Positions 10,212 to 28,332 are shown, counted from the stretch's first letter. The stretch: 64,000 nt of DNA from an uncultured Alphaproteobacteria bacterium (GCA_963804105.1 CAWDPL010000018.1:3508-67507); one strand, 5' to 3'. A program made the numbers and translations. The notes: generated by a model from the sequence alone, not told the origin.

Positions 10212-11432
10212 CTAAACGAAGTTGGTCTTGACCGTCGTCCGGTTGATGTCCGACAGCTTGACGCATCCGGCGGCGGAGGCCACCTGGACGAGTTCCTGCT
10301 GCATGATCTCGATCAGCCGCTGCGCGCCGGCGGTTCCAAAGGCGCCAAGGCCCCACCGCGCCGTCCGTCCGAGCATGACCCCGTTGGCCCCCAGGGCGAG
10401 CGCCTTGAAGATGTCGCCGCCGCGACGCACGCCGCTGTCGAACAGGACGGGAATCCGGCCGTTCACGGCCGCCACGATGTCCGGCAGGACCTCCAGCGTC
10501 GAGGGACCGTAGTCCATCGAGCGCCCGCCGTGATTGGACACGATGATCGCGTCCGCTCCGTGCTCGATCGCCAGCTTGGCGTCTTGCGGATCGAGAATCC
10601 CTTTGAGCAGAAGCGGACCTTTGACCATTTTCCGCACGTCATCGATATATTGCCACGTGTACCACAGGCGCTCGGCGCCGATCCGGTACCGCGCCGAACC
10701 GGTAGGCGCGGCCGTTGGAGCGGCTGGGGCGCCTGTACGAGCCACGCGCCCGCCCAAATGACGGTCCTGCTGCGAGCGTTCGTAATAGGACGCTTGCTGA
10801 TCGATGGTGACGATAATGGCGTTGCAGCCGGCGCCCTGCAGGGCATCCAACGATCGCTGCGTGGCGGCGCGATCCTCCAGCGGATAAAACTGCGCCCACA
10901 GCACGCCGCCCGGCGAAGCCGGCGCGACCTGGGTGACCGACATGCTGCTGTTGATGCTCAGCATCATCAGGGTGTTGGATGCCGCGGTCGCCGCCTTGAA
11001 CATCCCGATCTCGCCGTCCGGATGCAGGGCCCGCATCGTCGCCGACGGCGCGATGATGATGGGGAATTTCATCTTCACGCCAAGCAATTCGGAGGAGAGG
11101 TCGACCTGCGATGGCGGGACGGCTGGGCGTGTAGGCGTAATGTCGACCCAATCGAACGCCTGGCGATTGCGCCGAAGGGTGAACTCCGACCCGTCGCCGT
11201 GCGCGGTGTAATCATAGACCGGCAGGAGCACATTGCCGAAGAAGACCGGCTCGAAGTCAAAGGACGTCTGCATCTCCGCCAGGCTCAAGGCGCGGTGATG
11301 CTCGCTGAAGGGCCGAGGGTCGCTCTGCGCCATGGCCGCGGCGATGGGAGAACCCGCCATCAGTCCAGCCAAGCGGGCCAAGGCCTTTCGCCGGGCCGGA
11401 TTCGTTAGCCAGGAACGCTCGATATCAGCCAT
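10212..11432 (-). CDS. FMN-dependent alpha-hydroxy-acid dehydrogenase/oxidase family protein with Tat-type signal peptide
   Basis: The N-terminus MADIERSWLTNPARRKALARLAGLMAGSPIAAAMAQS contains RR followed by a hydrophobic stretch and AxA. The canonical core is present: LLLKGILDPQDAKLAIEHGADAIIVSNHGGRSMDYGPSTLEVLPDI...PVLFDSGVRRGGDIFKALALGANGVMLGR. Confidence 0.75.
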   Translation of the reverse strand: MADIERSWLTNPARRKALARLAGLMAGSPIAAAMAQSDPRPFSEHHRALSLAEMQTSFDFEPVFFGNVLLPVYDYTAHGDGSEFTLRRNRQAFDWVDITPTRPAVPPSQVDLSSELLGVKMKFPIIIAPSATMRALHPDGEIGMFKAATAASNTLMMLSINSSMSVTQVAPASPGGVLWAQFYPLEDRAATQRSLDALQGAGCNAIIVTIDQQASYYERSQQDRHLGGRVARTGAPAAPTAAPTGSARYRIGAERLWYTWQYIDDVRKMVKGPLLLKGILDPQDAKLAIEHGADAIIVSNHGGRSMDYGPSTLEVLPDIVAAVNGRIPVLFDSGVRRGGDIFKALALGANGVMLGRTARWGLGAFGTAGAQRLIEIMQQELVQVASAAGCVKLSDINRTTVKTNFV

Positions 11433-12567
11433 GGGTGTTGCTCCCCGTGAGAAGCGGCGCGTGAACACGCACCACGCTGGGGTCGAGCGCCGCGAGCGAT
11501 GGACGCCCGCACATGCACATGTATCGCGCCAGTTCGGTCTGCAGCATTTCGACAACGCCCTGCACGCCGTCGGCGCCATACGCCGCAAGCCCCCACATCA
11601 CGGGCCGGCCGATCAGCACGCCCTTTGCGCCCAGGCCGAGGGCCTTGAGAATGTCAGTGCCGCGGCGGAAACTGCCGTCGACGAGCACGGGGACCTGATC
11701 GCCGACCGCCTGAACGACCGGGGCGACGAGGAGCAGCGTGCCCGGCAGGGTCTCCGCGTGACCGCCCCGATAGTTGGAGACCACCACGCCCTTGGCGCCG
11801 CGAGCGACGGCTTCCTTGGCCTCTTGCGGACGCGTGACGCCCTTGACGATCACGGGCAGGGACGTGTGCTTGACGACGGCGTCGACGGCCGCCCAATCGA
11901 TCCGCGCCGAGGCCGGCGTCGCGGGCGCGCCGGCGGACCCGCCGGCGTTGACCGTCACGATCACCGCCTTGGCGTGGATCGCATGCGCCTCGGCCAGCAC
12001 GTCCTTCACCTTGGGACTGTTCGCATAGACCTGCAGCCACAGCGGAGTCGTGGCGGCCTGGGCGATCGCCGCCAGGGGCAAGCTGGCGTCGCTGCTCACC
12101 ACCATCGCCGCCTTCGCCGCGGATGCCCCGCGCGCCGTGGCGACCTCGCCCTCGGGGTGGAAGCGCGTCTGATCGGCCATCGGGCCGACGATGATCGGCG
12201 TGAAGTGCTCATCGCCGAACAAGGTGCTCGTCAGGTCCAGATCCCGCGTGGGTACGTTCATCCGAGGACGCAGGGTGATGCGATCGGTGATGGTCCGGTC
12301 GCTGCCCAAAATCGGGGCGACCTCCGCCGGTCCCAACACCAGACGGGCTTGAGGTTCGTACTCGAGCACATCCACCAGGTCCGCTCGCGGCGCCAAGACC
12401 GGCGGCGGTATCGGCTCGCGAAGCGGCGTCGCGCCATGCGCAGGCGTGGTCGCGGCCGCCATGCCGGCGGAGACAGTCGTGGCCATCACCCCGATAACCT
12501 GGCGGCGCGACGTCATCCCTGCAGGTGAGCCGGTCTTTTCGGCCGTAATCGTCTCGTCATCCGGCAT
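11425..12567 (-). CDS. divergent FMN-dependent alpha-hydroxy-acid dehydrogenase paralog with Tat-type signal peptide
   Basis: MPDDETITAEKTGSPAGMTSRRQVIGVMATTVSAGMAAATTPAHG. The core VIVKGVTRPQEAKEAVARGAKGVVVSNYRGGHAETLPGT...VLVDGSFRRGTDILKALGLGAKGVLIGR has SNYRGGH where the neighbouring paralog has SNHGGR. It overlaps the downstream paralog by 8 nt. Confidence 0.65.
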   Translation of the reverse strand: MPDDETITAEKTGSPAGMTSRRQVIGVMATTVSAGMAAATTPAHGATPLREPIPPPVLAPRADLVDVLEYEPQARLVLGPAEVAPILGSDRTITDRITLRPRMNVPTRDLDLTSTLFGDEHFTPIIVGPMADQTRFHPEGEVATARGASAAKAAMVVSSDASLPLAAIAQAATTPLWLQVYANSPKVKDVLAEAHAIHAKAVIVTVNAGGSAGAPATPASARIDWAAVDAVVKHTSLPVIVKGVTRPQEAKEAVARGAKGVVVSNYRGGHAETLPGTLLLVAPVVQAVGDQVPVLVDGSFRRGTDILKALGLGAKGVLIGRPVMWGLAAYGADGVQGVVEMLQTELARYMCMCGRPSLAALDPSVVRVHAPLLTGSNTHG

Positions 12568-12750
12568 TACCGTCTCCCCCGTTGATCGCCTGCAGAACTC
12601 TCGCAGCGCACGCCTATGCGCGCGGCAGGCCGGTGAAGCGGCCACTGTGCAGACTGGCGCTCATGTTGCACAGGGGGATTGTCAGTCCAACATGCGCCAT
12701 CAGGTAATCGGCGGGGCGTGAGGCGCCGGCCGCGCCGCGCGCTACGAGCG

Positions 12751-15219
12751 CTAGTTCTTGAACCGCACGGTCACACCGAAGGTGCGCGGCGCCGCCAGGA
12801 AGGCGTTGTAGGTGCGGATCGAGGCGGGATCGGTCTGGGCGCCCTGCAGCGGCGCATTGAACGCCAGGTCCACGATGGTGACGTTGGTCAGGTTCTCGGC
12901 CCAGGCCTCGACTGTCCAGCCGCGCTGTGGATCGCCCACGCCCAGGCGGGCGTTGAGGACGGTGTAGGCGTCCTGGATCTTTTGCGGGGCCAGGTCAGAG
13001 CCGGTGTTGTAGGCGGAATTGTACTTGGCCGCGAGATTGGCGCGGGCGACCAGCCCGCCGCCCAGCGGCGTCTGGTAATCGCCCGCGAAGGTGGACGACC
13101 ACAGGGGCGCGTAAGAGATCGTCGCGCCGGGCAGCAGCGACAGGCCGGCGAAATCCTGCGGATTGGTCAACTGGGCGGCAGTGAATTGGCCGTAGTGGGT
13201 CTGGTCGTAGGTCGCCCCGCCGTCCAGTCTGAGGCCCGTCACCGGCGTCTGCCAGTCGAAGTCCGCGTCCACGCCGGTGGAGTTCACCTGCGGGATGGAT
13301 TCCACGATGAAGCTGGTGCCCAGGAAGGTGTTGAGCTGGAAGTTATGGTAGGTCTGATCGAACAGGGCAGCGTTCAGCGTCACCGTCCGGCCCAGCCACT
13401 GGGATTTGACGCCGACTTCATAGGCGTCGACCGTCTCGGGGGCGAAATAGGTCGAGTTGTTGATGATCAGGGAGGCCGAGGTCGGCGTGAACGACAGGCT
13501 CGACGCGGCTCGGTCAAAATTGAATCCGCCGGCCTTGTAACCGCGCGAATAGGACGCGTAGCTCATCAAATCCTGGGTCCAGCGGTAGTTGGTCCCGGCC
13601 GTGCCCGACCAGGCCCGCTCCGAAGAGGTCTGCGCGCCGCTGCGGGCGTCGAAGGCCTGGGCTTCCCACGGCAGGCACATGGCGCCGGTGATCGCCTGAG
13701 CCGTCGGCGCCCCCACCACCCCCGCCAGGGCCGGATAGGCCGCCAGGCCCTGGTTGCAGGAGCCGCCGGTGGTGGAGAAGGTGGAATTGAGCTTCTTTTC
13801 GTCGTCGGTGTAGCGCACGCCCACGGTGACATCCCAGGCGTCGGTCAGGGCCAGGGTGTCGTTGGTGAACAGGGCGATGGTCGTGTCGGTCTGCTTGAAG
13901 CTGTCGTTCTGCCCCGTGCCCGGCAGGAAGGTGTTGGACGGCAACAGGCCGATCAGGCCCGGCGCGCCGCCCGTCACCTTACCGGCCAGGAACGAGTAGT
14001 AGTCGGTCCCATAGAGCAGGGGCGAGGCGCCGTTGTAGGTCTCCGAATCCAGGAACAGGCCCCCCAACCAGCTGACGCGGTCGACCTTGCCGGCCAGACG
14101 CGCTTCCTCGGTCAGGGTGTCGAACCGGTCGGTGTATTGGCCGGCGGGCCGATAGAACAGGTCCGCCGCGCTGAAGTCCCAGTCGCCGCCGCGTCGGGAG
14201 TCCCAGTCGCGCCAGGCGCTGATGGAGGTGAAGTCGGCAAATCCGAGCTTGGCGTCCACCTGGGCGGAAATCCCGCCGTCGGTGGTGTGGTCCAGGTCGT
14301 CACGGTTGGCGTAGGTCACCCGGCTGTCGGGCGAAGGCGTGAGGGTCTCGGCGGCGGGCTGGACCTGGGTAAGCAGGGCCGCGCGCGAGGCGGGCGAGCC
14401 GCCTTCCCACACCTGCACCGCCTCGCAGCAATGCTGGCGCAGATCGGCGTAGTCGGCGATCAGGCGCACGCGCAGCTGATCGGTGGGCGTGTAGAGCAGT
14501 TGGCCGCGCGCGGTCCAGTCGTTTTGGTCGTCGTCATGCAGGTCCGTGCGCGGACCGGCGGCCGTGACCACCGTGTTGTAGCCGGCGTGGCCCTCGCCGC
14601 CGATGTAAAGGCGTCCGGCAAGCTGGTCGGCCACCAGCGGTCCGGTGACCGAACCCTTCACGCCCCAGCCGTCATAGTTGCCCGCGGTGGCCTCGACGGA
14701 ATAGCCGGGCTTGAACGACGGCTGGGCGGTCAGGACGTTGATCACGCCCGCCGAGGTGCTCTTGCCGAACAAGGTCCCCTGCGGGCCCTTCAGGACCTCG
14801 ATCCGGTCCAGTTCGCCCAGGTCCTCGAAGCCCACGCCGTTGCGCGGGCGATAGACTCCGTCGATCACCACGCCGACGGAGGACTCCAGGCCCGGGTTGT
14901 CGCCCACCGTGCCGATGCCGCGGATACGAGCGGTGGTCGAGGCCTCGCTGGTGCTGGAGGTTACAGTCAGGCCGGACATCAGGATTTGCAGGGATTTGAT
15001 GTCCACCACGCCCGCCTGGGCCGCGCGGACCGCCGTCACGGCCGACACGTCCACCGGCACGATTTGCAGGTTCTGTTCGCGCTTTTGGGCGGTGACGATC
15101 ACCTCGTCGGAGGGGGCGGCCGCAGCCTGCGCGCACGCCTGAGACGCCGCGATCATGCCGAGCGACAAGGCCGTGGCGCCGCTCAGGGCGCGAAGCAGAT
15201 CACGCGGAAAATTAGCCAT
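12751..15219 (-). CDS. TonB-dependent receptor
   Basis: Intact 822-aa ORF. It has a signal peptide (ALSLGMIAASQACAQA) and plug motifs (VIVTAQKREQNLQIVPVDVSAV, IEVLKGPQGTLFGKSTSAGVINV). A long beta-barrel ends FGVTVRFKN*. Confidence 0.85.
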   Translation of the reverse strand: MANFPRDLLRALSGATALSLGMIAASQACAQAAAAPSDEVIVTAQKREQNLQIVPVDVSAVTAVRAAQAGVVDIKSLQILMSGLTVTSSTSEASTTARIRGIGTVGDNPGLESSVGVVIDGVYRPRNGVGFEDLGELDRIEVLKGPQGTLFGKSTSAGVINVLTAQPSFKPGYSVEATAGNYDGWGVKGSVTGPLVADQLAGRLYIGGEGHAGYNTVVTAAGPRTDLHDDDQNDWTARGQLLYTPTDQLRVRLIADYADLRQHCCEAVQVWEGGSPASRAALLTQVQPAAETLTPSPDSRVTYANRDDLDHTTDGGISAQVDAKLGFADFTSISAWRDWDSRRGGDWDFSAADLFYRPAGQYTDRFDTLTEEARLAGKVDRVSWLGGLFLDSETYNGASPLLYGTDYYSFLAGKVTGGAPGLIGLLPSNTFLPGTGQNDSFKQTDTTIALFTNDTLALTDAWDVTVGVRYTDDEKKLNSTFSTTGGSCNQGLAAYPALAGVVGAPTAQAITGAMCLPWEAQAFDARSGAQTSSERAWSGTAGTNYRWTQDLMSYASYSRGYKAGGFNFDRAASSLSFTPTSASLIINNSTYFAPETVDAYEVGVKSQWLGRTVTLNAALFDQTYHNFQLNTFLGTSFIVESIPQVNSTGVDADFDWQTPVTGLRLDGGATYDQTHYGQFTAAQLTNPQDFAGLSLLPGATISYAPLWSSTFAGDYQTPLGGGLVARANLAAKYNSAYNTGSDLAPQKIQDAYTVLNARLGVGDPQRGWTVEAWAENLTNVTIVDLAFNAPLQGAQTDPASIRTYNAFLAAPRTFGVTVRFKN

Positions 15220-15510
15220 AGTGAACAGTCCTCCCAGGCCCCCGGCAAGGTGAGTCTAGCCCGCAAATTACGAATAGAGAGATAATGGGCGGCGATGGCG
15301 GCTGTCGGAAGAATTTCATGCTTAAATTTAGACCCAATATCCGGGATCAAGGACAAAGCCACTCCGTTCGCTGTCGCAGCAATTTCGGATATGACAGGTG
15401 TTGCTTGAGTCTGGCGCTCGAATTTCCTGGCCATTGGTATAGGTCCTCGGCCAAGCTCTCCCAGGACGTTCGGCTGGCCTCGCGCGCCGCGTCGCGCTAG
15501 AGCCCGAGCC

Positions 15511-16603
15511 ATGAAGATCGACGGCGTTCCCTATCGCACCATCTGGCGCACCGCCGACCGGCGCGCGGTCGAGGTGATCGACCAGACCGCCCTGCCCCAC
15601 GCCTTCCGCACCCAGGTTCTGGCCGACGCCGACCAGGCTCGGGCGGCCATCGCCGACATGATCGTGCGCGGCGCCCCCTTGATCGGCGCCACCGGCGCCT
15701 ATGGCATGGCGCTGGCGGCGCAGGTCGACGCCTCCGACGCGGCGGTGGAGCGCGCCGCCTTGCTGTTAGCCCAAGCGCGGCCGACCGCGATCAATCTGCG
15801 CTGGGCGGTGGAGCGGGCCAAGGCCGCGATTCTCGCCGCCGCGCCCGCCGATCGCGCCCGGGCGGCCTGGGCCGAGGCCGACGCCATCGCCGAGGAAGAC
15901 GTCGCCGCCTGCATGGCCATCGGGCGGCATGGACTGGCCCTGATCCAGCGGGCCGCCATAGGGCGCGCGCGGGTCAACATCCTGACCCACTGCAACGCCG
16001 GATGGCTGGCGACGGTGGACTGGGGCACGGCTTTGGCGCCGGTCTACGCCGCCCACGACGCGGGGATCGCCGTGCACGTGTGGGTCGACGAGACCCGGCC
16101 GCGCGGCCAGGGCGCGGCGCTGACGGCATGGGAGCTGGCCGGGCACGGCGTGCCGCACACGGTGATCGCCGACAACGCCGGCGGCCATCTGATGCAGCAC
16201 GGCCTAGGTGGACCTGTGCATCGTCGGCTCCGACCGCGTGGCGGCCAACGGCGATGTCTGCAACAAGATCGGCACCTATCTGAAGGCCCTGGCCGCCCAC
16301 GACAACGGCGTGCCCTTCTACGCCGCCCTGCCCTTCTCAACCATCGACTGGAGCGTGGCGCGCGGCGCCGACATTCCCATCGAGGAGCGGGACGCCCGGG
16401 AGGTGACCCATCAGACCGGGATCGACACGGACGGGGCTCTGCGCACGGTGCGCCTGACCCCCGAGGCCAGCCCCGCCGCCAATCCCGCCTTCGACGTCAC
16501 CCCTGCCCGCCTGATCAGCGCCATCATCACCGAACGCGGCGTATGCGCGGCGAGCGCGGAGGGTCTGCGAGGGCTGTATCCGGAGACGGCGAGCGTCCGC
16601 TAG
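15511..16603 (+). pseudogene. mtnA: S-methyl-5-thioribose-1-phosphate isomerase MtnA, one frameshift near 16205
   Basis: MKIDGVPYRTIWRTADRRAVEVIDQTALPH...IVRGAPLIGATGAYGMALA...RPTAINLRWAV...NILTHCNAGWLATVDWGTALAPVY...VWVDETRPRGQGAALTAWEL, then in the next frame [42 protein letters not shown]...[18 protein letters not shown]. Confidence 0.85.
16500..16591. repeat. left copy of a 92-bp direct repeat (inside the mtnA 3' end)
   Basis: cccctgcccgcctgatcagcgccatcatcaccgaacgcggcgtatgcgcggcGagcgcggagggtctgcgagggctgtatccggagacggcg recurs at 25621-25712 with one mismatch (G/A). About 12 nt of degenerate similarity follow. Confidence 0.95.
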
Positions 16604-16987
16604 CGGGCAAGGTCTGACGCTTAAATCTCGGCGGTTTGCTGAAGATGCTGTCGGTGGAAGGTCAGGTTTCGGGCCAGGCGCCAAAGAGGATGGTCGACCC
16701 TCTGCGGCGGTTGGGAAGGTCCGCTCCCCGGCTCCGGCGGCTGGAAACCGCGTCCCACCGGCGGCTAAGCCAACTCTCGAAACTTTGTCTCAGCACAGGA
16801 ATGTCGATCATGATGCGAAATACTCCGAACGAACGCCGCCGGGCTGCGTTTATGGTCTGGGCGACAGCTGCGCCTCTACGGCGCTGTGCGTTCCGCCCTC
16901 ACCACGGTCTCAATGAGTGGCGTTAGCCAACGCTTCCAAAATGCAGGGAGGAAACGCCGTTCATTCGACCGCTTAGGAAAGATTCCT

Positions 16988-19201
16988 GTGTTCCATCCGC
17001 CCTCGATCGATATCGCCCGCGCTCGGATTCGCTTCGGCCAGAACGCCGATGGATCGCCCGATCGGCGCGCCGCCACGCCGAGCGGCCTTCTGGCAAGTTG
17101 GCCCGAATATGCGATCGACGCCCTTCAGCGCGGTGCTCTGTTCCTCGATCTGTTGCGGCAGCGCGGCAACGAGGAGATCGAGATCACCTCGCGGCCTCTG
17201 GCCACTTTGCTCAGTTTCGATCACGAAGTGCTGATGAGCGGCCTGTCGCTGCCGCGGCCGATCAACTATTCGCTTTCACGCATCCTCCCACCGCCGCGCG
17301 TGACGATCGACCCATGCAAACGGCCGGTGGTGGTGATCGACCCTCGGGCCGGCCAGGGATCGGGCATCGGCGGCTTCAAGGCCCAGAGCGAGATCGGCGA
17401 CGCCCTCGCCGCCGGCCATCCAGTCTACTTCATCGGCTTCGGGGCGATGCCCGCGCCGGACCAGCAGTTCCTGGACGTCGTCGAGGGACAGGTGAAGTTC
17501 TTCGAGCGCGTGGCCGAGTTGCATCCCCACGCCCCCCGCCCCTTCGCCATCGGCAATTGCCAGGCCGGCTATCAGACGCTGATGGTGGCCATGCTCAGGC
17601 CGGACCTGTTTGGCCCGTGCCTGGTCGTCGGCTCGCCGATGTCCTACTGGCAGGGCGTGCGCGGCAAGGACCCGATGCGCTATTCCGCTGGCCTGTCGGG
17701 CGGCAGTTGGATCACCGCCATGACCAGCGATCTGGGCGACGGCCTGTTCGACGGCGTCTGGCTGATCCTGAACTTCGACAGCCTGAACCCAGCCAACACG
17801 CTTTGGGGCAAGCAGTACCAAGTCTACGCGGACATTGACGCGGGCGCCGACCGCTACCTCCAGTTCGAGAAGTGGTGGGGCGATTTCATCCAGCTGAACG
17901 GCGACGAGTTGCAGTTCCTGGTGGACGACCTGTTCATCGGCGACAAACTCGCCCGGACCGCCCTGCACGCCAGCGACGGAACAACGTTCGACGTGCGGAG
18001 GATCACGTCCCCCATCGTCGCGTTCGCCTCCTCCGAAGACAATATTAGCCCGCCGCCGCAGGCCCTGGGCTGGATTCTGGACGTGTACAGGGACGTGGAG
18101 GACATCCGGACCGCCGGACAGACGATCATCTACGCCCTGAACCACAAGGTGGGGCATCTGGCGCTGTTTGTCTCGGCCAAGGTGGGCGCCAAAGAGGACG
18201 AAGAGTTCGTGCAGTCGATGGACGTCATCGACTGCCTGCCGGCCGGCCTCTACGAGATGATCATTTCGCCCCGGCCGGCGGATCTGGCGTCGGGCGGTCT
18301 GGTCGAGGACGACTGGATCGCCCGTTTCGAGGCGCGTTCGCTGGACGACATCCGCGCTCTGGGGCGCAACAGCCCCGAGGACGACCGCGCCTTCGCCGCG
18401 GTAGCCCGGCTGTCGGCGCTGAACCTTTCCGCCTACCGCAGGTTCATGCAGCCCTGGGTGCGAGCCTTCTCCAATCCGCTGACGGCCCAACTGGCTCGGG
18501 ACTTGAACCCCCTCAGGCTCAGCTACACCGCCTTCGCCGACGGCAACCCCTGGATGACCGGGGTCAAGGGACTGGCCGCCGAGGCCAAGGCCCAGCGCAG
18601 GCCGGTGGCGAACGACAATCCCTTCCTGACGCTGCAGACGCAGATCTCCGATCAGATCACCGCGGGGCTGGACGCCTATCGCGCGGCGCGCGACCAGATG
18701 TCCGAGCGGATGTTCTTCGGCTTCTACGGCTCGCCTGTGGTGCAGGCGCTGCTCGGCGTAGGCGACGACGTGCGCCCTCCCCCGGGGCCCGTGTCCGAAC
18801 AACCGGCGCCCAGCGTGGCCAAGGCCTGCGCGGCGAAACTGGAGGCCGGCGGCTTCGATGAAGCCCTGGCCCGGGCGGTGCTGTTCGTGACCGCGGCCGA
18901 GCGGATGGTCGATCCGTATTGCGCCCTGGCGCTGAGCCGCGCCCGCCAACATCTGGCCCATCTGTCGCTCGACCAGTTCAAGGCGCTGGTGCGCGGCCAG
19001 TTCTCCATCCTGCAGATCATGCAAGACGAGGCGGTGCAGGCCCTGTCCGCCCTCATCCCCAAGGCGGACGACCGCAAGATCTTGCTTGAGCGGGTGCGGA
19101 CCATCGTCGGCGCCGCGGCCGAAAGGGACCGTCTCGCCCGGCTGTCGCGGGTCTGGGCCCCGCCCTCGACCGCAGACCTCGCCCCCGCCCACCGCGCCTG
19201 A
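16988..19201 (+). CDS. DUF3141-family alpha/beta-hydrolase-like protein (often annotated as 3-hydroxyalkanoate synthetase-like)
   Basis: Intact ORF. GTG at 16988 is preceded by aggaaag. YAIDALQRGALFLDLLRQRGNEEIEI...PVVVIDPRAGQGSGIGGFKAQSEIGDAL..GHPVYFIGF...FAIGNCQAGYQTLMVA...GGSWITAMTSDLGDG. Confidence 0.65.
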   Translation: MFHPPSIDIARARIRFGQNADGSPDRRAATPSGLLASWPEYAIDALQRGALFLDLLRQRGNEEIEITSRPLATLLSFDHEVLMSGLSLPRPINYSLSRILPPPRVTIDPCKRPVVVIDPRAGQGSGIGGFKAQSEIGDALAAGHPVYFIGFGAMPAPDQQFLDVVEGQVKFFERVAELHPHAPRPFAIGNCQAGYQTLMVAMLRPDLFGPCLVVGSPMSYWQGVRGKDPMRYSAGLSGGSWITAMTSDLGDGLFDGVWLILNFDSLNPANTLWGKQYQVYADIDAGADRYLQFEKWWGDFIQLNGDELQFLVDDLFIGDKLARTALHASDGTTFDVRRITSPIVAFASSEDNISPPPQALGWILDVYRDVEDIRTAGQTIIYALNHKVGHLALFVSAKVGAKEDEEFVQSMDVIDCLPAGLYEMIISPRPADLASGGLVEDDWIARFEARSLDDIRALGRNSPEDDRAFAAVARLSALNLSAYRRFMQPWVRAFSNPLTAQLARDLNPLRLSYTAFADGNPWMTGVKGLAAEAKAQRRPVANDNPFLTLQTQISDQITAGLDAYRAARDQMSERMFFGFYGSPVVQALLGVGDDVRPPPGPVSEQPAPSVAKACAAKLEAGGFDEALARAVLFVTAAERMVDPYCALALSRARQHLAHLSLDQFKALVRGQFSILQIMQDEAVQALSALIPKADDRKILLERVRTIVGAAAERDRLARLSRVWAPPSTADLAPAHRA

Positions 19202-19217
19202 CGAAGCGGAGTCCGAC

Positions 19218-20579
19218 GTGCCTGTCCTCGTGAACAAGACCTTCGAAGAAATCGCCCTCGGCGACACCGTGTCCATCGAGCGCACGCTGCAGGTTGGCGA
19301 CATGAGGGCCTGGGCGGCGGCCTTCGGCGATGCCGATCCGCTCACCGGACCAGGCGAGAGCCAAGTCGCCTCCGGCATTGTCACCGCCTTGCTGACCGCA
19401 TTGGCGGGATCGGCGCTGCCCGGACCCGGGTCTTCGATCCGTGCGGCCTCGGTGCAAATGCTGGGTCTGCTGCCCGTCGGCGCGGCGGTGACGGCCCAGC
19501 TCGTCGCGCGCGAGAAGCGGCCCGATCAAGGCGTGGTGATGCTGGATGGCAGTTGCACGGACGCCGCCGGAAAGATCGTGGCGACCGCCGTGCTGGAGGT
19601 GCTGGCGCCGACCACGCGGCTGGAGCGCCAGGTCCCCGACCACCGGCTCGAGGGCCTGGTGGCGCTTTGCCGAGACCTCAAGCCCATGCCGACAGGCGTA
19701 GTTCATCCCTGCAGCGCGGAGGCCCTGGCCGGCGCGGTGGAGGCCGCCGAGGCCGGGCTGATCGTGCCGGTGCTGTTCGGCCCCGAGGCCGAGGTCCGAC
19801 GCGTCGCCGACCAGGCCGGCCTCGACATTTCCGCTTGCCGAATCACGCCCTCCGACGGCGCCGAGGACTCGGCGCTCAAGGCCGCCATGGCGGCCGGTCG
19901 GGGCGAGGTCGCGGCGCTGATGAAGGGCAGCTTGCATAGCGACGTGTTCCTGCACGCCATCATGCAGGCCGACGCCAAGCTGCGCACTGGGCGGCTGATC
20001 AGCCATTGCGCCCTGGTGTCGGCGCCGACCTACGGCCGCCGCTTCATCATCAGCGACGCGGCTTTGAACATTGCGCCAAACACCGACCAGAAGCGCGACA
20101 TCTGCCAGAACGCGATCGGCTTCGCCCGCGCGCTCGGCGTCGATACGCCGAAAGTGGCCGTGCTGGCGGCGGTGGAAATGGTCAATACGGCGATGCCGGC
20201 GTCCCTGGACGGAGCGATCCTGGCGAAGATGGCGGACCGCGGCCAGATCGTGGGCGGTGTTGTCGACGGTCCCCTCGATCTGGACGCAGCTGTGGACCCG
20301 GAGGCGGCGCGCATCAAGCATATCGCCTCACCCGTCGCCGGCGCCGCGGACGTGCTGATCGCGCCAAGCATCGAGGCCGGCAACATGGTCTACAAGAATC
20401 TGGCCTTCATGGCCGACGCCCAGACCGCCGGCCTGGTGGTGGGCGCCCGAGTTCCGCTGATCCTGACCAGCCGCGCCGACGCCGCCCCCGCACGCATCTT
20501 CTCCGCCGCGGCGGCCGTCCTTTACGCCGATGCGCTGGCGCGCGATCCGAAGAGTCTCCTGCCTGACGTGGCGGAGTGA
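19218..20579 (+). CDS. pta: bifunctional MaoC-like enoyl-CoA hydratase / phosphate acetyl(butyryl)transferase
   Basis: The N-terminal hot-dog segment is VNKTFEEIALGDTVSIERTLQVGDMRAWAAAFGDADPL. The C-terminal Pta/Ptb domain is VVHPCSAEALAGAVEAAEAGLIVPVLFGPE...ALMKGSLHSDVFLHAIM...FIISDAALNIAPNTDQKRDI..NAIGFARALG...VLIAPSIEAGNMVYKNL. Confidence 0.8.
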   Translation: MPVLVNKTFEEIALGDTVSIERTLQVGDMRAWAAAFGDADPLTGPGESQVASGIVTALLTALAGSALPGPGSSIRAASVQMLGLLPVGAAVTAQLVAREKRPDQGVVMLDGSCTDAAGKIVATAVLEVLAPTTRLERQVPDHRLEGLVALCRDLKPMPTGVVHPCSAEALAGAVEAAEAGLIVPVLFGPEAEVRRVADQAGLDISACRITPSDGAEDSALKAAMAAGRGEVAALMKGSLHSDVFLHAIMQADAKLRTGRLISHCALVSAPTYGRRFIISDAALNIAPNTDQKRDICQNAIGFARALGVDTPKVAVLAAVEMVNTAMPASLDGAILAKMADRGQIVGGVVDGPLDLDAAVDPEAARIKHIASPVAGAADVLIAPSIEAGNMVYKNLAFMADAQTAGLVVGARVPLILTSRADAAPARIFSAAAAVLYADALARDPKSLLPDVAE

Positions 20580-20585
20580 CCGGCG

Positions 20586-21792
20586 ATGACCGAGATCATC
20601 CTGGTCTTCAACAGTGGGTCCACCAGCGTCAAGTTCGCCGCCTATGGGTTGGGCCAAGCCAAGACCCTGGACCTTGTCAGTCATGGCGAAATCGAGGGCC
20701 TGCCATCGGACGCGGTGTTCACGGCGAAGGACCCCGCCGGCAAGACGCTGGGCGAGAACGCCTTCCCCAAGGGCCACGAGATCGATCATCGGACGGCGCT
20801 GCATTACGTCGTCACCTGGCTCGAGCAGAACCTGGCGAACGCCAAAGTCGTCGGAGCCGGTCACCGGATCGTGCTGGGCGGGGCGCGATACGAGGCGCCG
20901 GTGCTGATCGACCGCGATGTGCTGGCCTATCTCGATACGCTCGTGGCCATGGAGCCGTCGCACCAGCCCTACAACGTGGCCGGCGCCCGAGCGCTGGCCG
21001 ACGCCTTCCCCGGTCTGCCGCAAGTCGGCTGTTTCGATACGTCCTTCCATCGGACCATGCCCGAGCTGGCCCAGACCTATGCGCTGCCCAAGGATGTGCG
21101 CGACAGCGGAGCGCGACACTGGGGCTATCACGGGATTTCCTACGAATACATCAGCCGGCAGGTCCCGAAGTTCGCGCCGATGGCGAGGCGGGTGATCGTC
21201 GCCCATCTAGGCGGCGGCGCCAGCATGTGCGCCATGCTGGACGCGAAAAGCATCGAAACGACCATGGGGTTCGGCGGCCATTACCGGCCTGCCCATGGCG
21301 ACCCGCTCAGGCGACATACCGCAGGACCTGCTCTTCTACCTGCTGCGGTCCAAGCTGTTCGATGACCAGTCGCTCGAAAAGATGCTCTACGAGCGATCGG
21401 GTCTCCTGGGGTTGTCCGGTTTCAGCGGCGACATGCGCGAGCTGCAGGTCAGCGACGATCCGCGGGCCGTCCAAGCCGTCGCCTACTTCGTCTACGCCAT
21501 GACCAAGGTGGTCGGCGCCTATGCGTCGGTGCTGGGGGGGCTGGACGCCCTCGTGTTCACCGCCGGCATCGGCGAGAATTCGGCGCCGGTGCGGGCCGGC
21601 CTATGCCGCGCCCTGGGCTGGCTCGGCGTGGCGCTCGACGAGGCGGCGAACCAAACCAACGGGCCACGCATCTCCACCGCGGACAGCCGCGTGTCGGTCT
21701 GGGTCATTCCGACAAACGAGGAATTGATGATCGCCCAGCACACGCTGGCGCTGACCAAGGCGCAAGGATCGAACCATGTTCAAGTCGATTGA
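20586..21792 (+). pseudogene. ackA: acetate (propionate) kinase, one frameshift near 21280
   Basis: MTEIILVFNSGSTSVKFAAYG...VGAGHRIVLGGARY...EPSHQPYNVAGARAL...QVGCFDTSFHRTMPE...WGYHGISYEYI...VIVAHLGGGASMCAM, then LPMATRSGDIPQDLLFYLL...LVFTAGIGENSAPVRAGLC...VWVIPTNEELMIA. Confidence 0.85.
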
Positions 21793-22156
21793 GGGCCTAC
21801 CCGCAGATGTACTGGCAATCGAAGCCAGTGGGCAGATCACCGACCAGGACTATCGCGGCACATTAATACCCCTCGCCGAATGCTTACTGGCCAAGGGTCC
21901 GATCAAGATGCTTTACGTCATCGGATCCGATTTCACCGGCTTTGATCTCGCGGCGCTTTGGGACGACAGCGCCTTCGGCTTCAGCCACTGGCACGACTTC
22001 AGCCGGATCGCATTGGTTACAGATCACGCCTGGATGTGTGGCGCGGTCACCATGTTCAAGCCCTTCTTTCAAGGGGAGGTGCGCCTGTTTCGGCTCGCGC
22101 AATTGTCCGCCGCGAAGGACTGGATCACGGCTCCGCTGGCGGGCGCACGGTCATGA
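21776..22156 (+). CDS. STAS/SpoIIAA-like (DUF3478-type) protein
   Basis: MFKSIEGLPADVLAIEASGQITDQDYRGTLIPLAECLLAKGPIKMLYVIGSDFTGFDLAALWDDSAFGFSHWHDFSRIALVTDHAWM. Its stop overlaps the ATG of the ATPase (ATGA at 22153-22156). Confidence 0.55.
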   Translation: MFKSIEGLPADVLAIEASGQITDQDYRGTLIPLAECLLAKGPIKMLYVIGSDFTGFDLAALWDDSAFGFSHWHDFSRIALVTDHAWMCGAVTMFKPFFQGEVRLFRLAQLSAAKDWITAPLAGARS

Positions 22157-24717
22157 CAAATTCCCAGAAGCAGAGCGCCAAGCCAGCGCACGCGCACAAG
22201 AACGCCAAGCCGCCAGCCAAGACGGCGCACCACGCCGTGGCTGAGAGGCCGGGCTCGAAGCCCGATCCGAACGAAGCCCTCAAATCGATGTCCATGGCCG
22301 ATCTGGTCGCCAAGCTGGAGTCCTCGGCCGACGGCCTGACGCAGGCCGAGGCGCAGAAGCGGCTGACCCAATACGGCCCCAACGAACTTGAGGAGAAAAA
22401 GACCAACGAGGTCCTGAAATTCCTCGGCTACTTCTGGGGTCCGATCCCGTGGATGATCGAGGCGGCGGTGATCCTTTCGGCGGTCGCCAGGCATTGGCCG
22501 GACTTCGGCATCATCCTGCTGCTGCTGGTCGCCAATGCCGTGGTCGGTTTCTGGGAAGAGCATCAGGCGGGCAATGCGATCGCCGCCCTGAAGGCCAAGC
22601 TCGCGGTCAAGGCCAGGGTGGAGCGGGACGGCAAGTGGGTGCAGCCGCCCGCCAGAGAACTCGTGCCCGGCGATGTCATCCGCCTGCGTCTGGGCGACAT
22701 CGTCCCGGCCGACGCGCGCCTGCTCGAGGGCGACCCGATCGAGGTTGACCAGTCCGCACTGACCGGAGAATCCCTGCCCGCCACGCGAAAGCGGGGCGAG
22801 GCCGTGTTCTCCGGTTCGATCGTCCGCCAGGGCGAGATCGGCGCCCTGGTCTACGCTACGGGCGCCCACACCTACTTCGGCAAGACCGCGGAATTGGTGC
22901 AGGAGGCCCACACGGTCAGCCATTTCCAGAAGGCTGTTCTGAAGATCGGCAACTACCTGATCATTCTCGCCGTGGCCCTCGTCGCGGTGATCATCGGCGT
23001 CGCGCTCTACCGGGGCGATCCGCTCCTGACCACCTTGCAGTTCGCCTTGGTATTGACCGTCGCGGCCATCCCAGTGGCGATGCCGACGGTGCTGTCGGTG
23101 ACCATGGCTGTGGGCGCGCGCCTCCTGGCCAAGAAGGAAGCGATCGTCACCCGTTTGTCGGCGATCGAGGAACTGGCCGGGGTCGACATCCTGTGCTCGG
23201 ACAAGACAGGCACCCTGACCCAGAACAAGCTGACGCTGGGCGATCCATTCTGCCTGGATCACATGCCGGCCGATCGGGTGATCCTCAACGCCGCCCTAGC
23301 CTCGCGCGCGGACGACAAGGACGTCATCGACCTGGCGGTTGTCGGCGGCCTGAAGAACGACCAGGCCTTGAAGGGCTACCAAGTTGTCCATTTCCAACCG
23401 TTCGACGCGGTGCAAAAGCGCACCGAGGCCACGGTGAAGGGCGCCGACGGCAAGCAATTCAAAGTCGCCAAGGGCGCGCCCCAGGTGATCCTGGCTTTGG
23501 CGTCCAACGCCAAGACGGTGAAGGCGGCCGTCGACAAGGCGGTCGACGATTTCGCGGCGCGCGGCTTTCGCGCCTTGGGCGTGGCGCGGGCCGACGGGGA
23601 CGGCGAATGGCGCATGCTCGGCGTACTGCCGTTGTTCGATCCGCCGCGGGACGACGCCAAGGCGACGGTCGCGACCGCGCGGACAATGGGCGTCAGCGTC
23701 AAGATGGTGACCGGCGACGCCATCGCCATCGCCCAGGAGACCGCCAAGAAGCTGGGGATGGGAACGAACATTCTAGACGCCAGCGGCTTCGGCGACTCCA
23801 AACGCCACGAAACGAAGGCTTTGTCCGCGTTGATCGAGACGGCGGACGGCTTCGCTCAGGTCTTTCCGGAGCACAAATTCCACATCGTCGATGTCCTGCA
23901 GAAGGCCGGCCACATCGTCGGCATGACCGGCGATGGGGTGAACGACGCCCCGGCGTTGAAGAAGGCCGATTGCGGGATCGCCGTTTCCGGCGCCACAGAC
24001 GCTGCGCGGGCGGCGGCGGCCATCGTGCTGATGACGCCGGGTCTTTCGGTGATCATCGACGCGATCAAGGAGAGCCGGCGCATATTCCAGCGGATGAACA
24101 GCTACGCCATTTACCGCATCGCCGAGACGCTGCGGGTTCTGCTGTTCATGACCCTGGCGATCCTGGTGTTCAATTTCTATCCCGTGACGGCGGTGATGAT
24201 CGTCATGCTGGCTCTGCTCAACGACGGCGCCATCCTCTCGATCGCCTATGACAACGTGCATTACAGGAACCAGCCCGAAGCCTGGAACATGCGCGTTGTT
24301 TTAGGCGTCTCCACCGTGCTGGGAGTGGTCGGCGTTATCGCCGCCTTTGGACTTTTCTACCTGGCCGACCGCGTGTTTCATCTCGACCGGGCGCACATCC
24401 AGACGCTGATGTACCTGAAGCTCTCGGTCGCCGGCCACTTGACGATCTTCCTGACCCGCACGCGGGGGCCGTTCTGGTCGATCCGCCCGGCGCGGATTCT
24501 GCTGATAGCGGTATTCGGCACCCAGGCCGTGGCGACCCTGATCGCGGTCTACGGTCTGTTCATGACCCCGCTCGGCTGGGGCTGGGCGGCGTTCGTGTGG
24601 GGTTACGCACTGGCCTGGTTCCTGGTGAACGACCGCGTGAAGCTGCTGGCCTACCGGATACTCGATCTGTTGGGCGCGGCGTCGAAGCCGCCGGTTTTGA
24701 CGCCACAGGTCGCCTGA
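22153..24717 (+). CDS. P-type ATPase, plasma-membrane proton-efflux (type IIIA)-like
   Basis: Intact [74 protein letters not shown], with 10 predicted TM segments. Confidence 0.8.
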
Positions 24718-24745
24718 TGATCGGACCGTGGTCGAAAGGGACAAG

Positions 24746-25615
24746 ATGAAAATCCACACCAAGGACTTTCGCGTGGCCGAGGGCGAGGACGTCGACCTGG
24801 GGAATTGGCCGACCAAGGCCGAGCCCGTCTACAAATCGAAGGACCAGTACAAGAAGCTGCTGGAGGACCACGTCCAGCGGCTAAGCGATCAGCAGCAGCT
24901 CCTGTACGCCTCGAACCGCCACGCGATCCTTCTGATTTTTCAGGCGATGGATGCGGCCGGCAAAGACGGCGCGATCCGGCACGTGATGTCGGGGGTCAAT
25001 CCCCAGGGCTGCCAGGTATTCAGCTTTAAACATCCCAGCGCGGCCGAGTTGGAGCACGACTTCCTCTGGCGCACCACGCGCGACCTGCCGGCGCGCGGGA
25101 AGATCGGCATCTTCAATCGATCCTATTATGAGGAAGTGCTGATCGCGCGTGTGCATCCCGAAATTCTCGAAAGCGAAGGCGTCCCGGACGCAAGCCACGC
25201 CGACAAGGGGGTTTGGCGCGACCGCTATCGTTCGATCGTGGACCTGGAAAGGCACCTGCACGCCAATGGGACACGCATCGTGAAGGTCTTCCTCCACCTT
25301 TCAAAAGACGAGCAGCGCAAGCGCTTCCTTGAGCGGATCGACCAGCCCGAAAAGAACTGGAAATTCAGCCAGGCCGACATCGAGGAGCGGAAATTCTGGA
25401 AGCACTACATGAAGGCCTACGAGCAGTGTCTCAGCGCGACCAGCACGGCGGACTCACCATGGTATGTCGTCCCGGCCGACGACAAGGAGAACGCCCGGCT
25501 GATCGTATCCCAAATCATTCTGGACCTCCTGGATGGGCTCAAAATGACTTACCCGAAGACGACCGAAGAACGGCGAAAGGAGCTTTTGTCGATCCGAGCC
25601 CAACTCGCCGAATGA
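24746..25615 (+). CDS. ppk2: polyphosphate kinase 2 family protein (polyP:nucleotide phosphotransferase)
   Basis: [80 protein letters not shown]...[28 protein letters not shown]...[14 protein letters not shown]. Confidence 0.85.
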
Positions 25616-25620
25616 GGCAT

Positions 25621-25712
25621 CCCCTGCCCGCCTGATCAGCGCCATCATCACCGAACGCGGCGTATGCGCGGCAAGCGCGGAGGGTCTGCGAGGGCTGTAT
25701 CCGGAGACGGCG
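25621..25712. repeat. right copy of the 92-bp direct repeat (orphan mtnA 3' fragment)
   Basis: 91 of 92 nt are identical to 16500-16591. It lies between the ppk2 stop (25615) and the stop of the convergent gene (25726). Confidence 0.95.
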
Positions 25713-25725
25713 GGCGGTCCGTTCA

Positions 25726-27380
25726 TCACGCCCGGCGCGTCAAGAACTCCCTCTCGGCCTGAGGATTGACGAGTTCGAAGCTGTGCGCTTGGGCCATGTC
25801 CCAGGCGTTGCGATAGAAATCGTGGGGGCATTCGCCGCTTAGCAGTTCGCCCGGACGCAGGAATACGTGCATCGCCGAGAAGGGCTTGACCTCGGTCACG
25901 CTGATCCGCCGCACCAGGTGCTGGGGCGCCAACTGGCTGGGGTGCTCCAGGCCCGCCGCCGCCAGCATTTCGGACAAGGCCTTCAGGGTGTTGCGGTGAA
26001 AGTTATAGACCCGCTGGGCTTTGTCCTCCACCACCAGCGCGCGCTGGCGCGTGGGGTCCTGGGTGGCGACGCCGGTCGGGCAGCGGTTGGTGTTGCAATG
26101 GAGCGACTGCACGCAGCCCAGGGCGAACATGAAGCCGCGCGCGGCGTTGGCCCAGTCCGCGCCGATGGCCAGGACGCTGGCGATGTCGAAGGCGGTGACG
26201 ACCTTGCCCGCCACGCCGATGCGAATCTTGTCGCGCAGGCCCGCGCCCACCAGGGTGTTGTGCACCAGCAAGAGGCCCTCGCGCATGGGCGTGCCCATGT
26301 GGTCGGAGAATTCCACCGGGGCGCCGCGCCGGTGCCCCCTTCGCCGCCGTCCACCACGATGAAGTCCGGCCTGACGCCGGTCTCCAGCATGGCCTTGACG
26401 ATGGCCATGAATTCCCAGGCGTGTCCCAGGCACAGCTTGAAGCCCACCGGCTTGCCGCCCGAAAGTTCGCGCAGCCGGGCGATGAAGGCCATCAACTCCA
26501 GCGGCGTGGAAAAGCTGCTGTGGCGCGCCGGCGAGACGCAGTCCACGCCCATGGGCACGCCGCGCGCCTCGGAAATTTCCGGGGTCACCTTCTCGGCCGG
26601 CAATATGCCGCCGTGGCCCGGCTTGGCGCCCTGGCTCAGCTTTATCTCGATCATCTTGACCTGATCGTTGCGGGCCTGGGCGGCGAAGCGGTCAGGATCG
26701 AAACGGCCCTCGGCGGTGCGGCAGCCGAAATAGCCGCTGGCGACCTCCCACACGATGTCGCCGCCGAACTCGCGGTGGTAGCGGCTGATGCTGCCCTCGC
26801 CGGTGTCGTGATAAAAGCCGCCGAGCTTGGCGCCCTTGTTCAGGGCGCGGATGGCCGCCGCGCCAAGCGAGCCGAAGCTCATGGCCGAGATGTTGAACAC
26901 CGACGCCGAATACGGCTGGGCGCACTGGTCGCCGCCGATGGTGATGCGGAAGCTTGAGGGATCGGCGTGGTCCACCGGGCAGGTGGCGTGGCCGATGAAT
27001 TCATAGCCGTCCTGATAGACGTCCAGCAGCGTGCCGAACGCCCGCTCGGCGCCCTGGTTCTTGGCCCGCGCGTAGACCACCGAGCGCTGCACCCGTGAGA
27101 AGGGCGCGGCGTCCTCGTCGGCCTCGATCAGATACTGGCGGATTTCCGGGCGGATCAACTCCGCCAGCCAGCGCACATGGCCGAGCACCGGATAGTTGCG
27201 CAGGATGGAGTGGTGGGGCTGGAACAGGTCGTGGATGCCGACCACGGTGAAGAAGACGGCGACCACGGCGATGGCCTGGTGCCAGAACACGTGGTGGTCC
27301 CAGATGAAGGCGATCTCGAACAGCAGGATGAGCACGCAGATCGCCAGCGTGGCGTAGCGTCCGAGATTCATGGCCTTCAT
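25726..27380 (-). pseudogene. FMN-binding glutamate-synthase-family (GltB domain 2-like) membrane protein, one frameshift near 26320
   Basis: N-terminal TM helices: MKAMNLGRYATLAICVLILLFEIAFIW... Then FNISAMSFGSLGAAAIRALNKGAKLGGFYHDTGEGS, IEIKLSQGAKPGHGGILP, FIVVDGGEGGTGAAP, and in the next frame GLRDKIRIGVAGKV...LGADWANAARGFMFALGCVQSLHCNTNRCPTGVATQD. Confidence 0.75.
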
Positions 27381-27471
27381 TACGGTCCCTCAAGCGGGGT
27401 TGTCACGGCCAGGCGTCCTCCCGACTCGGCGCCTCGGCGGCAGGCTACACCCTATTGCGGTAACCGGGCCA

Positions 27472-28233
27472 TCACTGCGGCGCGACGAGGGCGAAGAAGG
27501 CGCCTTGCGGATCGCGGCACTGAACGATCCATTGGCCGCCGGGCACCGGCATGGGCCCCTGCAGCACCTCGCCGCCGCCGGACTTCACCTTGTCCAGCGC
27601 GGCGTTAATGTCCGGGACGTTGACGTAATACCGCCAGTGCGAGACCGGCATGAACGGCGGCCGCTTCATCATGCCGCCGATGTCGACGCCATCGTGGGAG
27701 AATATCTGGTAGGGGCCCATTTCTCCCATGTCGACGGCGTGGGCTTTGCTCCAGCCGAAGTGCTTGGCGTAGAAGGCGAAGCCCGCCTCCAAGTCGGAGG
27801 TCATCAGCTCGTGCCAACCGACATGGCCGGGTGCTGCGGCCGCGAGCGGCCGCATCTCGCCCTGGCCCTTGAAGATGCAGAGCACCGCCCCCTGAGGATC
27901 GGCCACCACCGCAAAGCGGCCCACGCCGGGAATATCCTCAGGTCCTTTGCGCACCGCGCCGCCGTCCGCCTGCATGGCGGCGGCGACCGCGTCCACGTCC
28001 GACACCGCCACATAGCCGGTCCAGCACGGCGGAACGCCCATGTCGCGTGTCTCCTGCGGCAGGGTCATCAGACCGGCCACGGGCTGTTCGTCCACAGTGA
28101 ACAGCACATAGGCGTCGCCCGGCAGGCCGGAATTTTGGGCCCGCCAGCCGACCACGGCGCCGTAGAAGGCCTCCGCCGCGGCCATGTCGGTGGTCATCAG
28201 GTCGTACCAGACGAAGGCGCCTTGGGTGGTCAT
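27472..28233 (-). CDS. two-domain VOC (glyoxalase/bleomycin-resistance/dioxygenase superfamily) protein
   Basis: Internal duplication: FVWYDLMTTDMAAAEAFYGAVVGW...GRFAVVADPQGAVLCIF in the first half, and VGWHELMTSDLEAGFAFYAKHFGW...GQWIVQCRDPQGAFFALV in the second. Confidence 0.7.
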   Translation of the reverse strand: MTTQGAFVWYDLMTTDMAAAEAFYGAVVGWRAQNSGLPGDAYVLFTVDEQPVAGLMTLPQETRDMGVPPCWTGYVAVSDVDAVAAAMQADGGAVRKGPEDIPGVGRFAVVADPQGAVLCIFKGQGEMRPLAAAAPGHVGWHELMTSDLEAGFAFYAKHFGWSKAHAVDMGEMGPYQIFSHDGVDIGGMMKRPPFMPVSHWRYYVNVPDINAALDKVKSGGGEVLQGPMPVPGGQWIVQCRDPQGAFFALVAPQ

Positions 28234-28332
28234 GCCGGTTTCCTCGCGTTTGGCGCCTATGTTCCACTGTCGGATGACGCTAGTCCAGCGTCGCGACCGT
28301 CCCGTGACGACGCGCTCGGCTGCGCCTCGGAC

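Follow-up and report, generated by a model that had tools for sequence, protein, structure and literature searches.

A five-gene accessory cluster lodged between two copies of the mtnA 3′ end in an uncultured alphaproteobacterium

How did a block of about 9 kb come to lie between two nearly identical copies of the end of one gene, with no recombinase to accompany it? The question is raised by a 64,000-nucleotide stretch of DNA from an uncultured Alphaproteobacteria bacterium (GCA_963804105.1, CAWDPL010000018.1:3508-67507; hereafter the window), in which the block at 16500-25620 separates mtnA, the gene of methylthioribose-1-phosphate isomerase, from a convergent Glu_synthase-like gene. A sequence-only reading of the window had taken the flanking repeats chiefly for the attachment (att) sites, attL and attR, of an element integrated site-specifically into the mtnA 3′ end. 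Our comparison with related loci suggests that the block is best explained as a horizontally acquired accessory cluster, fixed at the mtnA/Glu_synthase-like convergent junction. The features that define the junction are as follows.

15511..16603, plus strand: mtnA (methylthioribose-1-phosphate isomerase), the target gene; Pfam IF-2B; 90% amino acid identity to metagenomic MtnA.
16500..16600, plus strand: left repeat copy, continuous with the mtnA body, whose reading frame it completes (...ETASVR, TAG).
25621..25722, plus strand: right repeat copy, a non-functional, stop-less mtnA tail in the ancestral position against the convergent stop.
25726..27380, minus strand: Glu_synthase (GltS-FMN domain)-like gene, the right flank; Pfam PF01645 on both halves.

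A repeat search of 15000-27500 returned a single outstanding direct repeat, 16500-16595 / 25621-25716, which is 96 nt long and 98% identical, with two mismatches (16552 G versus 25673 A and 16592 A versus 25713 G). The 92-nt, one-mismatch repeat described earlier sits within it. When one extra G in the right copy (GG, 25717-25718) is allowed, the similarity reaches ~16600 / 25722, and what is duplicated is, in essence, the 3′-terminal ~101 nt of mtnA as far as the stop codon. The chance expectation for such a pair in 64 kb is ~1e-40. The left copy runs into its TAG stop at 16601-16603, and the earlier statement that it completes the mtnA frame is correct locally, but mtnA as assembled is split by a 1-nt insertion at 16205, located against two related contigs (L081 and L088). 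The right copy begins 5 nt past the stop of the last gene of the block, which encodes a PPK2-family protein, and between its end and TCA (25726-25728), where the convergent gene stops, there are 0-3 nt. It is an mtnA 3′ fragment with no mtnA sequence upstream of the repeat, and the flanks of the two copies differ on both sides.

The contigs of relatives were picked by MtnA similarity. The host is Caulobacteraceae-like, some of the relatives with 82-86% MtnA identity being labelled as Caulobacteraceae metagenome-assembled genomes. The closest MtnA in the species-representative genome collection has 68% identity, and the large protein collection adds a uniform sister lineage, with 90%, and further MtnA proteins with 82-86%. 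The relatives share a syntenic order of MMPL, DUF2141, glycosyltransferase, LPG synthase, TonB receptor, mtnA, Glu_synthase-like, GT9 and transglutaminase genes, within which the junction downstream of mtnA takes several forms.

L090 and L091 (MtnA 85% identical to that of the window): mtnA and the Glu_synthase-like gene directly convergent, stops overlapping (CTAA).
L092 (MtnA 82%): the same two genes directly convergent, stops overlapping (CTAG).
L081-L087 and L185-L189 (sister lineage, MtnA 90%): a 410-nt spacer with a 78-aa open reading frame (ORF).
L088 (MtnA 85%): an orphan RelB antitoxin gene.

In L090, L091 and L092, three contigs from two lineages, the two genes overlap by 4 nt and a single mtnA tail is present. 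This is the empty site for which the sequence-only reading had advised a search. The nucleotide homology between the window and L081 (87-88%) ends near the mtnA stop and restarts exactly at the Glu_synthase stop, 25726, and the repeats bound exactly the inserted DNA. The alignments thus show the block to be a genuine insertion relative to the empty sites of its relatives, as the sequence-only reading had proposed. In L088 the interval 11341-11646 is occupied by an orphan RelB/DinJ-family antitoxin gene with no toxin adjoining. Flanking repeats were found neither around this insert nor around the 78-aa ORF insert of the L081 group. Judged from these occupants, the mtnA/Glu_synthase-like junction is a place that has been hit repeatedly by insertions.

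Each repeat copy is ~86.5% identical to the mtnA tail of the sister lineage (L081), whereas the two copies are 98% identical to each other, which indicates that the duplicated tail derives from this lineage itself. Since the right copy directly adjoins the Glu_synthase-like stop, as the mtnA tail did ancestrally, we read it as the displaced native mtnA tail, while the left copy would be the one that now completes mtnA. Outgroup polarisation of the two mismatches assigns one derived state to each copy and is uninformative on which of them is older.

This arrangement is what a Campbell-type single crossover at the mtnA tail would leave behind, and we lean towards such a homology-driven event, to which we assign a probability of about 0.42. 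The inserted DNA (16500-25620) would have begun with its own copy of the mtnA tail and would have been carried on a circular incoming molecule. One reciprocal crossover between the chromosomal mtnA 3′ end and the near-identical ~100-nt tail on the circle would then yield, on the left, the mtnA body joined to a TAG-ended tail, with the gene kept whole, and, on the right, the native tail stranded against the convergent stop and decaying (stop lost, one derived substitution, one indel). The junction expected on the circle would read PPK2-stop-GGCAT, a single tail and TAG-CGGGCAAGG, and that expected at the empty site would read mtnA body, a single tail and TCATCACGCC. Because ~100 nt at 98% identity suffices for RecA, no dedicated enzyme would be needed to insert the block or to loop it out. 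The duplication is as long as the shared homology, its length is sufficient for RecA, and one copy is a truncated relic, all of which are features of Campbell-type insertion. We infer that a circular intermediate, a single crossover and homology rather than an integrase were at work. Formally, an integrase that acts on att sites and RecA that acts on ~100 nt of homology would produce the same topology, and the data appear to be explained as well by homology-driven (RecA) recombination or a duplication in situ as by an integrase.

Several points weigh against the crossover. The tail-bearing circle was not seen, the mtnA tail being present in 0 of 94 cargo-related loci, and an earlier event of imprecise excision or capture would be required to bring a conspecific mtnA tail onto the circle. 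At least one later mutation (e.g. TGA to TCA, 25723-25725) must be assumed for the stop-less right copy. The assembly also contains many 1-nt insertions, and the detail at the junction (the extra G and the two mismatches) may be unreliable.

The block ORFs were scanned with Pfam and NCBIfam. No integrase, transposase, relaxase, phage or conjugation gene was detected in the ~55 window ORFs scanned (28.3-36.1 kb was judged only through annotated syntenic relatives), and on this point the sequence-only reading, which had found no integrase, excisionase, transposase or conjugation gene in the 64 kb, was borne out. Neither ginABCD genes among the scanned ORFs nor a tRNA gene in the window was found. 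The unassigned DNA of the block amounts to 347 nt (16604-16950) and 560 nt (21753-22312), which leaves no room for even an integrase remnant. None of the 92 other mtnA loci carries a second copy of its own mtnA tail within 10 kb, and in the 94 cargo-related loci there is no fragment of the mtnA tail to serve as a candidate attP. Of the marks of an integrative element, flanking direct repeats and an empty attB are present, while an encoded recombinase and a recurrent att site or attP are absent. A transposon is not suggested either: there are no inverted repeats at the block ends and no transposase, and the duplication is ~100 nt rather than 2-14 nt. Promoter and terminator scans at both block junctions found nothing.

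Some other candidate signals at the block ends were rejected. The 14-mer AAATCTCGGCGGTT, which follows the left copy and also occurs downstream of PPK2 in a cargo relative (L093), was considered as a trace of circular permutation; it has no extended alignment, its core 10-mer is common in GC-rich loci, and it is attributed to chance. A Tn3-type left-end repeat (GGTCTGACGCT, which resembles the Tn3 inverted repeat) has no inverted partner in the block and no match in another cargo relative, L179. The likeness between the MtnA tail peptide and the PPK2 C-terminus (ARLI…YP.T, ~40% over 40 aa, E 0.03-0.5) is probably a coincidence, as the true junction lies elsewhere. This likeness is seen in ~14 loci, and a 12-nt near-match, GCCCGNCTGATC, relates 16505-16517 to 25494-25506.

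The cargo consists of five genes rather than the six counted earlier: a 1-nt insertion near 21275, placed by comparison with L173 and L176, divides ackA in two, and the 96-aa ORF at 16636-16926 matches no family and is poor in its third-position GC and coding statistics. The features within the block are the following.

16612..16734, plus strand: non-coding stretch, homologous to DNA just downstream of the LPG-synthase gene of the sister lineage.
16988..19201, plus strand: DUF3141 protein, 737 aa, GTG start; Pfam PF11339, E 2e-251.
19218..20579, plus strand: bifunctional enoyl-CoA hydratase / phosphate acetyltransferase; NCBIfam NF006045, 505 bits (cutoff 282).
20586..21792, plus strand: acetate/propionate kinase (ackA); Pfam and NCBIfam matches on both halves.
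22153..24717, plus strand: plasma-membrane-type (IIIA) proton-efflux P-type ATPase; NCBIfam TIGR01647, 1072 bits (cutoff 615).
24746..25615, plus strand: ADP-polyphosphate phosphotransferase (PPK2 family); NCBIfam NF042973, 526 bits (cutoff 450).

The DUF3141 protein, whose start was placed by alignment to L173, shares 87-90% amino acid identity with its homologs P0121 and P0122. The P-type ATPase shares 92% with that of L093, and PPK2 is full length relative to its homologs. The third-position GC of the cargo (0.79-0.86) is only slightly under that of the flanks. From the family assignments, ATP generated from acetyl-phosphate (Pta-AckA) and from polyphosphate (PPK2) may feed the proton-efflux ATPase, and it is plausible that the cargo is an acid/energy-stress module suited to an acidic peat habitat. 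The non-coding stretch at 16612-16734 aligns to L081 3087-3214 with a local alignment score of 91, compared with 41±7 for shuffles, and with 80% identity over a 61-nt core. It was matched by nhmmer only in the window and in loci of the L081 group, and its homologue in L081 stands at the edge of another, lineage-specific insertion. A search of 16400-17200 and of the homologous L081 stretch for structured RNA gave no Rfam match at E ≤ 1. Possible readings of the stretch are a regulatory leader and an end of some mobile DNA common to both places.

Recombination has made a mosaic of the block, whose breakpoints lie at 16950, 21752 and 22312. Its first part, 16950-21752 (DUF3141-PTA-AckA, with PTA for phosphotransacetylase and AckA for acetate kinase), shares 88-89% DNA identity with contigs that place the module in different surroundings. 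At least two such contexts exist, one with Band_7 upstream and an N-type ATPase operon downstream, the other with an ADH fragment upstream. In L173 (10001-21659) and L174, an N-type (AtpR / ‘gene 1’) F-ATPase operon follows DUF3141-PTA-AckA and replaces the P-type H+-ATPase and PPK2, and the Pta-AckA module seems to have been coupled repeatedly to an ion-pumping ATPase. The second part, 22312-25584 (ATPase-PPK2), is 84.5% identical to L093. The closest PPK2 proteins are 89-91% identical. One close PPK2 relative (L179) adjoins a Tn3-type transposase fragment, a resolvase and IS630, with an ackA remnant upstream of the ATPase; others adjoin IS630 (L180-183) or lie near a phage-type integrase (L184). 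The Caballeronia plasmids pSBC2-4 and pSBC1 carry DUF3141, FabI, PTA, AckA, H+-ATPase and PPK2 contiguously, at 74-78% DNA identity. On pSBC2-4 (L190, 10897-29007) the cluster is followed by one integrase gene, three tandem integrases with a small ORF, and an IS91 transposase, and this integrase run, which starts directly downstream of PPK2, has a GInt-like layout (GInts being the ginABCD tyrosine-recombinase islands). On Acidiphilium pACRY01, DUF3141 adjoins the H+-ATPase beside insertion sequence (IS) elements. To judge by these neighbourhoods, the cargo is a conserved accessory cluster, plasmid-borne or transposon-associated elsewhere and mobile by association.

The quality of the assembly bears on the reliability of the junction. 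Checked against two references (L081, L088), conserved genes of the window contain ~11 uncompensated 1-2-nt indels, almost all of them insertions, at 16205, ~21275, 26320 (a 2-nt insertion in the Glu_synthase-like gene as assembled), 28542, 29028, 29615, 30290, 30416, 30841, 31542 and 34719. They are clumped at 28.5-31.5 kb, a segment that covers GT25, GT9 and the transglutaminase N-terminus. The pattern either reflects an unpolished, insertion-biased assembly, which is most likely, or local pseudogenisation. A lower frameshift density within the block (1 observed versus 3.8 expected) was considered as a sign of differing coverage and rejected: the difference is not significant, and the frameshifts are clumped elsewhere in the window.

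Other routes to the same structure have to be weighed against the crossover. The repeats could be the attL and attR of a site-specific element that targets the mtnA 3′ end and whose recombinase, of the tyrosine or serine type, is no longer present or works in trans, as a CIME-like (cis-mobilizable element) or mobilizable islet would. The topology is exactly that of integration into a gene 3′ end with the gene regenerated, the empty site exists, relatives of the cargo adjoin integrases (L184, and pSBC2-4 with four integrase genes directly downstream of PPK2), and CIMEs, elements that keep att sites but have no integration genes, are a described class (PMC5704250). On the other hand, no recombinase is present in the block or the scanned window ORFs, genes fill the block except for the 347 and 560 nt given above, the second tail (0/92 mtnA loci) and the attP (0/94 cargo-related loci) do not recur, the other inserts at the junction have no repeats, and both tails are equally native-like. 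Taken together, the absence of a recombinase, a remnant, recurrence or an attP appears to speak against a dedicated, recurrent site-specific system, and the att origin favoured by the sequence-only reading becomes doubtful, though an integrase working in trans would still be compatible with the evidence. Alternatively, the target may have been duplicated in situ by illegitimate, homology-facilitated or replication-restart (template-switch) recombination, with the ~100-nt repeat as a by-product of staggered breaks or of an upstream template switch, and with no circle or att site involved. This route is a serious rival, although we consider it unlikely. It agrees with the near-identity and native-like character of the copies, with the lack of a recombinase, terminal inverted repeats or a short target-site duplication, with the tight junctions (5 nt past the PPK2 stop), with the role of the locus as a general hotspot for unrelated repeat-less inserts, and with the mosaic structure of the block. 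Under random stagger, however, a right boundary within ~3 nt of the mtnA and convergent stops is a coincidence, though selection for both genes intact would favour such an end, and the insert would have to provide, with its very first bases, the stop codon of the left copy. Of the three substitutions that separate the copies, two are synonymous in the mtnA frame (GCG/GCA, CGC/CGT), a weak hint of coding constraint on both tails in separate genomes, which also counts against a duplication in place.

An error of assembly would account for the structure if a circular or plasmid copy sharing one tail-like repeat had been threaded into the contig, or if occupied and empty haplotypes had been concatenated. 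The window is unpolished, as its ~11 insertions indicate, and the cargo is plasmid-borne in other taxa. The copies nevertheless differ at two positions and by one indel, their flanks differ on both sides, and the correct resolution of a repeat of 96 nt is to be expected, given that long reads, and also the large k-mers with which modern short-read assemblers work, exceed it in length; the indel density of the block is not significantly unlike that of the flanks (p ~0.1). We regard such an artefact as very unlikely. Still less probable is that the block already lay downstream of mtnA, that 16500-25620 was duplicated in tandem and that the second copy was deleted except for its first ~100 nt. 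A tandem duplication would make just such a junction as 25620|16500, and bacteria often duplicate segments in tandem and remodel them later by deletion. Two illegitimate events would be needed, however, and it is left unexplained why the deletion should start within ~3 nt of the mtnA stop of the second copy and end within ~3 nt of the Glu_synthase stop, whereas these end points are natural if the right copy is the native tail. Finally, there is a slim chance that the block is something new in kind: a recombinase-free ‘homology cassette’ that RecA moves in and out through a ~100-nt gene end, the first element at mtnA with an integrase in trans, or an insertion for which 16612-16734 marks a new mobile-element end. 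If so, the cassette would move between conspecific chromosomes, or between plasmid and chromosome, with the target gene regenerated each time.

Islands that occupy gene 3′ ends and duplicate an att site include the tRNA-gene islands, SGI1 in trmE and ICESt3 in fda. The block resembles them in its bounding direct repeats, in a left repeat that regenerates the target, in the empty site of its relatives and in its adaptive cargo. It differs in that the scans revealed neither an integrase nor an excisionase in cis, nor any remnant, in the length of the repeat (~100 nt, 98%), and in that mtnA is not a recurrent target in the 92 other loci and cargo relatives have no attP. Campbell-type insertion-duplication, in which a circular molecule enters by a single homologous crossover, is familiar from suicide plasmids and from F-prime reintegration. 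In the block, too, the length of the duplication matches that of the shared homology exactly, the gene is completed by one copy while the other persists as a truncated relic, and a dedicated recombinase is not needed. A natural insertion of this kind needs, however, a circular donor that already carries the chromosomal fragment (0/94 cargo loci here), and the block has no vector or plasmid backbone. CIMEs are decayed integrative and conjugative or integrative and mobilizable elements (ICE/IME) that keep attL and attR and have lost their integration and transfer genes (PMC5704250). The block is likewise flanked by repeats, has no recombination or transfer genes and could in principle be mobilised in trans. 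What identifies a CIME, however, is that a cognate functional ICE or IME has the same att sites, and most descriptions of CIMEs come from Firmicutes (PMC5704250), whereas the block has no decayed mobility gene and no cognate ICE or IME was found in the 64-kb window or the fetched loci. GInts are site-specific, often insert at gene ends and have imperfect flanking direct repeats, and their hallmark is a ginABCD operon (three integrases and a small protein) at one end (PMC5385486). The likeness here is confined to the integrase run beside the same cluster on Caballeronia pSBC2-4, where the presumed GInt does not include the cluster, which is upstream of the run; the scanned window ORFs have no gin genes. 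Plasmid-borne DUF3141-pta-ackA(-fabI) clusters are also described, including Pseudomonas genomic islands with polyhydroxyalkanoate (PHA) genes (bioRxiv 10.1101/2025.03.12.642780). As in the block, DUF3141, phosphotransacetylase and acetate kinase travel together on mobile DNA, but the genes of the window, Caballeronia and Acidiphilium are coupled to a proton-efflux P-type ATPase and PPK2 instead of phaC/phaR/phaP, and the block has no tRNA target or integrase. It is best filed among the recombinase-less genomic islets with a duplicated gene end at their borders, structures of a fairly ordinary kind. We did not find mtnA reported as an insertion target in the literature, nor was it a recurrent one in the 92 other mtnA loci.

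The locus illustrates how a plasmid-type adaptive cluster may become chromosomal without a recombinase of its own, and the empty site, two alternative occupants and the displaced tail are all visible. If host homologous recombination uses the repeats, the block would be reversibly excisable without dedicated machinery, which bears on the turnover of ‘flexible’ islets in environmental bacteria. The cargo is ecologically suggestive in that it couples enzymes that generate ATP from acetyl-phosphate and polyphosphate to a proton-efflux ATPase. Plasmids of Caballeronia, Acidiphilium and lichen-associated bacteria carry it as well, as do metagenome contigs whose peat origin is judged from sample names only. 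Current concepts remain unchanged; the value of the locus lies in a documented example and in a pointer to a possibly widespread acid/energy-stress module.

Further variation was observed around the block. Upstream, at a distance of 4-6 kb, the junction of LPG synthase with the TonB receptor is variable as well (window 10212-12660, minus strand; L081 3108-7243). The window has two FMN-dependent dehydrogenase genes there, the sister lineage has a second TonB receptor and a 210-aa ORF, and L088, L090 and L092 have nothing. On the other side, a gene of the glyoxalase/bleomycin-resistance family (27472-28332, minus strand) lies between the Glu_synthase-like gene and GT25; it is present at the same place in L092, is absent from L081, L088 and L090, and represents a further small presence/absence polymorphism adjoining the block. 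At the left end of the window, 1-1900 has a third-position GC of 0.5-0.7, compared with 0.8-0.9 elsewhere, contains two minus-strand ORFs of the ExbD/TolR family and is possibly foreign.

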